Below are positions 13,724-15,147 of a DNA stretch of 20,346 nucleotides, in pieces. Origin of the DNA: a virus. Numbering within the stretch: position 1 is the first letter of the stretch; each line of letters begins with the position of its first letter. The stretch is taken from the UHGV virus genome UHGV-0243115. One strand, 5' to 3'. Under the pieces are notes generated by a model that ran no database searches, was not told the origin of the DNA, and saw only the letters and a program-made list of their open reading frames with translations. The position numbers were made by a program, and so were the translations under genes.

Positions 13724-14035
13724 TTATTCAGGAAATAACGCCCGGATATTTCCGGCCATCTGACTGGTTATCTGTGCGGTTGATACTGGCTGTGATGCGG
13801 GGCGTTCTGTCCTGGTTTGTGTCACTGATAACGCTTCATCACCAGCCCATGCAGCCAGTCGATAAGCCTCTGCCGGATTCATTTTCAGAAGTGCCAGCCC
13901 GGCCAGAAAAGCCACGCGTTGGCCGCTTTTGCGGGCTTCTGGTGTAAGGCTGTCCAGCCAGGCGCATGCTTCTCCTTCGTTCTTGACGGCGGTGGGCTTC
14001 AGATAGAAACTTATCCGTCTGGTTGGAGTCGTCAT
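13724..14035 (-). CDS. parR: ParR-like centromere-binding adaptor (plasmid type II partition family)
   Basis: Internal ATG at 14035 of track ORF 13724..14170, 4 nt after the ParM stop, with AAGGAG RBS. MTTPTRRISFYLKPTAVKNEGEACAWLDSLTPEARKSGQRVAFLAGLALL... aligns by eye with the R1 ParR N-terminus. Gene order parM-parR matches R1. Confidence 0.78.
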   Translation of the reverse strand: MTTPTRRISFYLKPTAVKNEGEACAWLDSLTPEARKSGQRVAFLAGLALLKMNPAEAYRLAAWAGDEALSVTQTRTERPASQPVSTAQITSQMAGNIRALFPE

Positions 14036-14039
14036 TGGT

Positions 14040-14999
14040 TTACTCCTTGTCCATTGCGTACAGCCCATTAACCAGAGCAAACTGTGGCACCCCGTCCGCG
14101 ATGAAAGTCGCATTAACTCCGCAGGCTTCGCGGATAGCGGGTGCCACAATCTCCGCCCCTCCACCGACAACCATCACCCGCCCGTAACCCGAAAAACCCG
14201 CCAGCGCGCGGATCACGCGTTGTTTCAGTGTTTCTTCCTTTTCACGAATTACCGCCATCAGGCTGGCGTAATGCGCGTCATTGTGGATGTGCTGGCGCAG
14301 CCAGGCTTCATCATGGCGATGTTCGATAATGGTATTGGCGATGTGGTGACTGGTGCGCATACCGTTAGTGGCCATCACCGACAGTACGGCATCGGCCATC
14401 AGAGAAACGCCCACGTGTGGATCGCAAAACACCTGGCTGATACCTGCCAGTTGCCCCTGAACCTTTGCCACATCCAGCGTGGTTCCGCCCAAATCCACAA
14501 TCAGCAGGGATTCAAACGGACTCATGTCAGCCAGTGCCTTAAAGCCAGCCGGAATGGATTCAGGCATAACCCGTACGTTACGGATAGTGAATGCTTCGCC
14601 GTTCTGGTACTCCACCGGGCGCATGACGTTCGCTTTTTTGCGGTTGATGTTGGCCATGTCCGGCTGTGCGTTTGTATCGAAATACTCGCTTAGTGGCAGG
14701 GTGACAACCACATCCACTTCCTGTGGTGTGATGCCTGATTTGACCAGCGCGTGATGAATGGCAATTATATTCACATCGCTGTACTGGTATTGCGTGTCGG
14801 TCGTCTGGACAAAGCGATCGCTGACCGGATCAAAACCATAGCGCACGCCATCAAGCATGTAGTTCGCGGGCTGCGTGCCACCGAACGGCGCAGACCATTC
14901 CGACTTGAAGCTGTTCGGGCTGATGGCGTTGCGGCGTTCGCCGTTCTCAGTCCATGCCAGCTTGATGTTGGTGGAGCCGTCGTCGATACAAATTTTCAT
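14040..14999 (-). CDS. parM: ParM/StbA-like actin-family ATPase (plasmid type II partition family)
   Basis: 319-aa ORF MKICIDDGSTNIKLAW... similar along its full length to R1 ParM (MLVFIDDGSTNIKLQW...). Actin-fold motifs present: IDDGSTNIK, DLGGTTLD, VGGGAE. Confidence 0.9.
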   Translation of the reverse strand: MKICIDDGSTNIKLAWTENGERRNAISPNSFKSEWSAPFGGTQPANYMLDGVRYGFDPVSDRFVQTTDTQYQYSDVNIIAIHHALVKSGITPQEVDVVVTLPLSEYFDTNAQPDMANINRKKANVMRPVEYQNGEAFTIRNVRVMPESIPAGFKALADMSPFESLLIVDLGGTTLDVAKVQGQLAGISQVFCDPHVGVSLMADAVLSVMATNGMRTSHHIANTIIEHRHDEAWLRQHIHNDAHYASLMAVIREKEETLKQRVIRALAGFSGYGRVMVVGGGAEIVAPAIREACGVNATFIADGVPQFALVNGLYAMDKE

Positions 15000-15036
15000 G
15001 TCGCTTTTCCTTATGTTGATTAATTAATCGGTTACA

Positions 15037-15147
15037 GGATTTTTAAATCCCGCTTTTGCCTGTTTTGTGCGCGCTTCATATATCGCGGCACGTTTTTTGC
15101 TCATTTACGGGATTTGTGAGTCCCGTTTCTGTCTGTTTTTTGTTTCC
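15037..15147. promoter_or_regulatory. Candidate parC-like centromere/operator region upstream of parM, overlapping the last codons of gene A
   Basis: Two small palindromes (ggattt tt aaatcc 15037-15050; acggga N8 tcccgt 15107-15126) and two imperfect ~23-bp direct repeats (15048-15070 and 15121-15147), ~73 bp apart. Confidence 0.35.

Follow-up and report, generated by a model that had tools for sequence, protein, structure and literature searches.

A fixed R1-type parMR pair and a candidate parC site in P88-like phages, with a probable role on transient circular genomes

Introduction

Why should a P2-like phage that integrates into its host chromosome carry a plasmid-type DNA segregation cassette directly behind its replication gene? 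The question is raised by UHGV virus genome UHGV-0243115, a stretch of viral DNA of 20,346 nucleotides (referred to here as the window), in which genes for a ParM-like actin and a ParR-like adaptor follow one another on the minus strand, preceded by a pair of repeats. A deposited genome, that of Xuanwuvirus P884B11 (Escherichia virus P88_4B11, Peduoviridae), matches the window with 100% identity; for P88 and further phages of the P88-like group, the identity is 93–97%. A preliminary description of the window, made from the sequence, took the two genes and the repeats for a ParMRC-like partition cassette placed in a variable, defence-rich hotspot. It proposed either that the element is maintained as a low-copy episome (a phage-plasmid) or that the filament system has been co-opted for phage–phage conflict.

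As such, the partition pair is known: databases annotate it, and two papers comment on it. RefSeq annotates both genes of P88_4B11 as partition proteins, and the PGAP names in E. coli genomes are 'plasmid segregation protein ParM' and 'plasmid partitioning/stability family protein'. Rousset et al. (2022), who analyzed the interval from gpA to gpQ in P2-like prophages of E. coli, pointed out the system and raised the idea of a plasmid state; Pfeifer et al. (2021; PMC7969092) counted P88 as a candidate phage-plasmid, for which they proposed 'episomal and integrative states'. The paper describing P88 contains no discussion of the cassette. Here, we add the distinction between a fixed gene pair and the hotspot beside it, the selection acting on parM, the domain pattern of ParR, and a count of chromosomal and plasmid locations.

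Results

parM and parR encode intact R1-type partition proteins

The parM gene (14040–14999, minus strand) encodes a 319-amino-acid actin-fold partition ATPase of the R1 ParM/StbA family. The protein matched the Pfam domains StbA_N (3.7e-82) and ParM C-terminal (1.3e-68), and its residues 2–316 aligned with the R1 ParM crystal structures in the Protein Data Bank (PDB code: 1mwk; E=1.2e-92). It is approximately 50% identical to ParM of plasmid R1 over the full length, and the nucleotide-binding blocks IDDGSTNIKL, MPESIPAG, DLGGTTLD, and GGGAE, among them the phosphate- and adenosine-binding blocks, are identical or near-identical to those of R1 ParM. The PHROGs family of the protein is phrog_691, 'partition protein'. 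An intact parM was present in 84 of 85 E. coli loci, and the ratio of nonsynonymous to synonymous substitution rates (dN/dS) among its alleles had a median of 0.054, showing that the gene is under strong purifying selection.

The ATG codon of parR lies at 14035, 4 nt past the parM stop codon, and the gene (13724–14035, minus strand) encodes a predicted centromere-binding adaptor of the StbB/ParR family with 103 amino acids. ParR matched PF10784 (Plasmid_stab_B) at 3.1e-23, a family that also contains ParR of plasmid R100 (2.6e-30). In BLASTP, the two ParR proteins were 32% identical over 62 amino acids (E=2e-8), and the PHROGs family, phrog_2515, is again named 'partition protein'. A search of PDB sequences with ParR returned nothing at E≤1; no full-length R1-type ParR is known to have been solved. 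Given this empty search, the assignment of ParR rests on the Pfam match and the alignment with R100 ParR. The formal searches thus bore out what the preliminary description had read from the letters for both proteins, a ParM/StbA homolog with intact actin-fold motifs and a ParR-like protein 4 nt behind it.

An intact parR was found in 80 of the 85 E. coli loci, and selection on it was distributed unevenly. Residues 1–62, the N-terminal domain, are conserved (dN/dS 0.11) and include the invariant N-terminal stretch TRRISFYLKP; this part is putatively the DNA-binding one. Residues 63–92 form a hypervariable linker (dN/dS 0.46). The last ~10 residues, from codon 93 to the end, are conserved again (dN/dS ~0) and carry the motif NIxxLFPE. 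In a cross-genus alignment, the C-terminal KNxxxLFP, which is kept across five phage lineages, aligned with the tail of R100 ParR, KKNAMKLIN. The corresponding C-terminal tail of R1 ParR is reportedly the ParM-binding peptide.

We also observed a mosaic structure in the 3′ two-thirds of parR (13724–13980). Nucleotide identity to E. coli P88-like prophages breaks at codon ~18 or ~48, parM remains 95–99% identical where this happens, and the ParR alleles are ~51–55% identical beyond the N-terminus. A recombination boundary of the cos-proximal hotspot thus seems, from this pattern, to lie inside parR.

The pair is fixed beside the replication gene

Directly upstream of parM and co-oriented with it lies gene A (gpA; 15076–17898, minus strand), which encodes a P2-type rolling-circle replication endonuclease of 940 amino acids (PF05840, 3.3e-131). 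To place the cassette within its lineage, we turned to complete E. coli genomes, 1307 of 5426 of which (24%) contain it at 90–100% identity, O157:H7 and ST131 strains included. In all 85 E. coli loci examined, parM stood immediately downstream of gpA. The other side of the pair was variable: among 48 loci, the distance from the parR stop codon to the portal stop codon took ~36 different values between 987 and 4168 nt, and the genes in this interval varied with the phage, being an Ead-like gene in the window, DUF4760 and hypothetical genes in ST131, and others elsewhere.

The same arrangement was found in P2-like prophages of four other genera, where gpA is followed by parM, parR, cargo, and the portal gene, sometimes with one or two small open reading frames (ORFs) ahead of parM and sometimes with ogr ahead of the portal gene. 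ParM of these prophages is 62% (Hafnia), 62% (Plesiomonas), 58% (Serratia), and 54% (Enterobacter) identical to that of the window. Three relatives that were checked at 49–52% ParM identity belong to one plasmid, one element resembling an integrative and conjugative element (ICE), and one integrated plasmid-like element. In a neighbor-joining tree, the phage sequences formed two groups apart from the plasmid radiation. The distant gene contexts were taken from protein homologs and the contigs encoding them; a scan of IMG/VR for related loci gave only relatives at least 99% identical and was used for the survey of alleles and cargo.

In P2, old and tin lie between gpA and cos or the portal gene, and the stretch from gpA to the portal gene has been documented as a defence hotspot of P2-like phages (Rousset et al., 2022). 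The location that the preliminary description gave for the cassette was therefore correct, but its view of the cassette as variable hotspot cargo was not: a defence hotspot is marked by variable presence, whereas parMR is fixed in the 85 E. coli loci and in four other genera. We conclude that parMR is part of the core of the P88-like (Xuanwuvirus) branch of P2-family phages. Because the pair is fixed beside gpA and the parR–portal interval is variable, the variable, defence-rich hotspot starts after, or inside, parR. For the mining of defence genes in the gpA–portal interval, this means that parMR should be counted as lineage core and the hotspot boundary set inside or after parR.

A rearranged relative was noticed in E. 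coli O157:H7 TW14359 (NC_013008.1, 2503500–2512594). This P2-like remnant retains gpA, parM, and parR intact, whereas an IS3 element abuts parR, the tape-measure gene is frameshifted, and no portal or terminase gene lies nearby.

Two palindromic boxes precede parM

Two direct repeats of 38 nt lie upstream of parM on its strand, each located both as a direct repeat and by an exact pattern match. The proximal repeat (15032–15069) occupies the gpA–parM intergenic region and contains the box CGGGATTTAAAAATCCTG (15035–15052); the distal repeat (15105–15142) is embedded in the 3′-terminal part of gene A, overlapping the last codons of that gene (stop codon at 15076), and contains the box CGGGACTCACAAATCCCG (15108–15125). 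The repeats match at 30 of 38 positions, and their score was reached by none of 500 dinucleotide-preserving shuffles. They are 73 bp apart, a box spacing of about seven helical turns. Each contains the palindrome CGGGA-N8-TCCYG, for which these are the only two zero-mismatch matches in the 20-kb window. Between the proximal repeat and the start of parM stands a leader (15000–15031, minus strand) with a ATTAATCAA block followed by the Shine-Dalgarno sequence AAGGA.

Comparison among genera indicated which parts of this region are kept. The positions and arms of the boxes are retained in E. coli, Plesiomonas (with a spacing of 72 bp), and Hafnia, while the spacers and the intervening sequence diverge; the ATTAATCAA block of the leader is likewise conserved in the three genera. 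In Hafnia, an extra ORF splits gpA from parM, and the boxes remain beside parM. Moreover, the half-site of the boxes, AA(A/T)CCC, resembles the parC iteron of R100, AAAACCC. We consider the boxes likely to be ParR sites, and the palindromes and direct repeats that the preliminary description had pointed to ahead of parM are, in this refined form, a plausible candidate for a ParR-binding site.

A role of the boxes as the gpA origin or as a terminator was considered and rejected. The Hafnia boxes stay with parM despite the ORF between gpA and parM, which argues against an origin belonging to gpA, and no T-run follows the boxes on the coding strand.

Expression signals around the pair

A terminator scan found no terminator-like site on the coding strand of the gpA–parM interval, and a consensus promoter scan called no promoter upstream of parM. 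Since neither signal was called, it is plausible that parMR is transcribed by read-through from the early replication operon, possibly with autoregulation by ParR in addition. A weak sigma-70-like element, TTTAAA-17-ATTAAT, can be drawn by eye, with the −35 hexamer inside the proximal box and the −10 hexamer in the ATTAATCAA block; it is at best a weak candidate for a parM promoter. Downstream, the gap that separates parR from the Ead-like gene contains a GC-rich hairpin, CAGGGCGAACTCGCCCTG (13698–13715). Because a T-rich tail follows it on the plus strand only, the hairpin is no obvious terminator of parMR.

The cassette resides almost exclusively in chromosomes

To determine where the cassette resides, its locations in the 5426 complete E. 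coli genomes were counted. There were 1455, of which 1453 were chromosomal and 2 were on plasmids, a chromosomal share of more than 99%. R1-type partition systems serve low-copy autonomous replicons, and this is not where the P88-like cassette is found. In PLSDB, matches with at least 90% identity included very large records (up to 1.4 Mb), a linear fragment, and one circular record of 34,461 bp. One match on a large plasmid was inspected, the conjugative IncC KPC plasmid pC-Ec2-KPC (NZ_MK439959.1, 24974–66159), which carries a large P88-like prophage fragment, including gpA-parM-parR and head genes, between copies of IS26.

The circular record, NZ_CP148288.1, was deposited as a 'plasmid' of a cat E. 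coli isolate, strain Z1323PEC0009. It is a complete P88-like genome with an integrase gene and no host DNA. A stretch of 14.4 kb of its phage recurs with 100% identity in a chromosomal prophage of the human isolate Z1323HEC0067, a strain sharing the Z1323 name prefix; the E. coli genome hits contained no assembly of Z1323PEC0009 itself. The search for circular episomal copies suggested by the preliminary description was thus answered in part: one circular record exists, and the identical phage is integrated in another strain.

The annotated gene content is that of an integrating phage. Both NC_049391 (the deposited phage genome identical to the window) and NZ_CP148288.1 have genes for an integrase, Cox, and a repressor, with gpA as the sole annotated replication initiator and no plasmid-type Rep gene among the annotated functions. 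Phage-plasmids keep their prophages extrachromosomally; here, integration is the rule, and even the phage of the circular record occurs in integrated form elsewhere. Because of the 1453 chromosomal locations against 2 on plasmids, a stable plasmid state of the prophage is rare or exceptional at most, and the low-copy episome proposed in the preliminary description is not the normal state of these phages.

A further gene outside the window was noted in the same genome. The product of NC_049391 gp32 (13353–13493 of that record) belongs to the Hok/Gef family (PF01848, 4.1e-7); no Sok RNA was found near it at the Rfam gathering score. With parMRC and this hok-like gene, the phage genome has homologs of both classical R1 stability loci.

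Neighboring cargo and gene layout

On the minus strand, the order is gene A, parM, parR, an Ead/Ea22-like gene, and a non-coding stretch containing the end of the deposited genome. The Ead/Ea22-like gene (13070–13660, minus strand; PF13935, 2.1e-32) lies outside the module and encodes a cargo protein of 196 amino acids with an N-terminal CxxC motif, assigned to phrog_368 (unknown function). Its matches to zinc ribbons were weak (E ~0.01–0.03), and it matched no defence family. In sister P88-like phages, the gene is absent or replaced by others; it is variable cargo, unlinked to parMR. A PADLOC search gave no match at E≤0.01 for ParM, ParR, or the Ead-like protein. The idea that the pair and the adjacent Zn-ribbon protein form a three-gene block for phage–phage conflict accordingly found no support in either result.

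The non-coding stretch (12580–13069) separates this cargo gene from portal gene Q (11533–12579, plus strand), beyond which lies the terminase gene (9782–11533, plus strand). The genome terminus (cos region) falls within it, as window position ~12986 is where the linear record NC_049391 stops. A 19-mer of P2 cos is absent from the window, and cos is placed here by the end of the deposited record only. Rfam revealed no known RNA in the window.

For gpA, we observed that the Pfam GPA domain spans only residues 179–503 of 940 and that homologs in other genera have 785–907 amino acids. The long C-terminal part is uncharacterized and ends in the distal box.

Discussion

Taken together, these features make it probable that the cassette is a functional type II (ParMRC, actin-type) segregation module, core to P88-like phages, that acts on transient extrachromosomal circles. 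ParR dimers would bind the two palindromic boxes, which straddle the 3′ end of gene A and the leader of parM, and would probably also repress a weak parM promoter there. The conserved C-terminal tail of ParR would capture the ends of ATP-ParM filaments, and the growing filaments would push apart or position the circular phage genomes that carry the site. Since the phage is almost always integrated and its sole annotated initiator is the rolling-circle protein gpA, the module would most likely be active while the phage DNA is circular and outside the chromosome, both in the time between infection and integration and during the replication by gpA that follows induction or excision. The likely benefit would be to spread or place the copies, so that they are neither lost nor clumped, which would match what is reported of srpMRC for excised ICEs and of AlpAC for CGP3 circles.

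Several observations weigh against this proposal. The Serratia and Enterobacter relatives differ in repeat layout, having inverted repeats of 14–20 nt that are 26–28 nt apart, again with ends of GGGAAC. Just two palindromic boxes are present, versus ten direct 11-bp iterons in R1 parC, and for this reason the boxes could be an operator only. The region 15025–15150 shows AA dinucleotides phased at 10.5 bp, to a degree reached in 5 of 2000 dinucleotide shuffles (monomer shuffles were rejected as an unfair null), and R100 parC shows the same phasing (4 of 2000); by the same kind of shuffle, however, it is absent from the equivalent regions of Plesiomonas and Hafnia. As the phasing is seen in E. 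coli and R100 but in neither of these two genera, we gave it little weight. To this may be added the silence of the consensus promoter scan upstream of parM, the absence from the literature searched of any experiment on the cassette, and the fact that a phage whose choice is between integration and lysis has no obvious gain from partition.

The alternatives differ mainly in when and on which molecule the module would act. A purely lytic role is unlikely but deserves mention: in the manner of AlpAC, ParM filaments would move or anchor replicating DNA for replication or packaging, with no part in inheritance. The AlpAC precedent, the mitomycin-C inducibility of P88, and the co-orientation of parMR downstream of gpA in five lineages are in line with such a role; with no terminator between gpA and the pair, parMR could be expressed with the early replication operon. 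However, the proteins are orthodox R1-type partition proteins rather than a divergent phage-specific actin, and this role overlaps with segregation of transient circles to the point that the two are inseparable by sequence alone. Slightly less probable still is a facultative phage-plasmid, in which P88-like prophages would persist as stable low-copy circles, a possibility raised by both Rousset et al. (2022) and Pfeifer et al. (2021). The circular record NZ_CP148288.1, a complete genome free of host DNA, speaks for it, as does the Hok/Gef-family gene as a second R1-like stability function. Nevertheless, the chromosomal locations outnumber those on plasmids 1453 to 2, the phage of the circular record is the one found integrated elsewhere, the large-plasmid match that we examined is a prophage fragment captured by IS26 on an IncC plasmid, others are very large records, and the phages keep integrase, Cox, and repressor, with the lytic rolling-circle gpA as the only annotated initiator.

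The two remaining explanations fare worse. That ParM and ParR, alone or with the Ead-like protein, hinder other phages, satellites, or plasmids would suit the documented defence hotspot between gpA and the portal gene, and one can conceive of incompatibility with plasmids that have a related parC, although this last point is inference only. We regard such a role in conflict as very unlikely, given a pair that is fixed rather than variable in its lineage, an Ead-like gene that is not linked to it, no PADLOC matches, and the conservation of all partition-specific features under purifying selection. Hardly credible is a decaying relic of past plasmid–phage recombination without present function. 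ParM relatives at up to 52% identity do occur on plasmids or ICEs, so that a plasmid origin is likely; yet the parM dN/dS of 0.054, the intact ORFs in 84 (parM) and 80 (parR) of 85 loci, and the conservation of the module across five genera are not what a relic would leave.

More tentatively, segregation of transient circles may be one side of a wider possibility, which we would not press: ParMRC might allow a Gram-negative phage that integrates to pass through an episomal phase with active segregation, transient or, in some cases, stable, with the Hok-family gene as a second function against loss, measurably raising lysogenization or lowering prophage loss. About one in four E. coli genomes contains a P88-like phage. 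If their circles are segregated, the theme of srpMRC and AlpAC would extend to the best-studied Gram-negative host, and the boundary between prophage and plasmid would blur for a very common prophage family. The cassette is both common and easy to test experimentally.

Among known systems, ParMRC of R1 and R100 (the parA/stb locus) is the closest in its components. ParM is ~50% identical over the full length with the same nucleotide-binding blocks, ParR belongs to PF10784 and has a similar C-terminal tail, parM and parR follow the site (in the phage, a candidate parC) in the same order, and the candidate site shares with R100 parC its richness in A, the CCC it contains, and the 10.5-bp phasing. 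In contrast, the replicon hosting the phage module is an integrating P2-family phage and not a low-copy plasmid. R100 parC is built from direct iterons of 11 bp (AAAACCC type), arranged as two sets of five that flank the promoter, whereas the phage has two palindromic boxes, the distal one overlapping the end of a replication gene. Phage ParR is also shorter, with 103 versus 116 amino acids, lacking a middle segment. The phage-plasmids P1, N15, and SSU5 (PMC7969092) are likewise temperate phages with plasmid-type partition genes; unlike them, P88-like phages keep an integrase, are more than 99% chromosomal, and have no annotated plasmid-type replication gene.

Precedents for such modules exist on integrating elements. 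The srpMRC module of SXT/R391 ICEs cuts the loss of a transient plasmid-like form that replicates by the rolling-circle mode (Carraro et al., 2015; PMC4489591). Like the phage cassette, it combines ParM-like and ParR-like proteins with a centromere on a normally integrated element, although that element is an ICE and not a phage, and SrpM and SrpR are only distantly related to R1 ParMR (PMC4489591), to which those of the phage are close. In Corynebacterium glutamicum, AlpAC with alpS is needed for efficient replication of the DNA of prophage CGP3, the adaptor binding a site upstream in its own operon and linking circular phage DNA to the filaments (Donovan et al., 2015; PMC4446434); here, the host is Gram-positive and the prophage unrelated. 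The likeness of the P88-like cassette to these two systems is one of anatomy alone: the element integrates, the gene for a rolling-circle initiator directly precedes the module, and the candidate adaptor site lies within the module's own upstream region. On this analogy, the cassette of P88-like phages would be comparable to srpMRC and AlpAC rather than to the permanent maintenance of a plasmid prophage.

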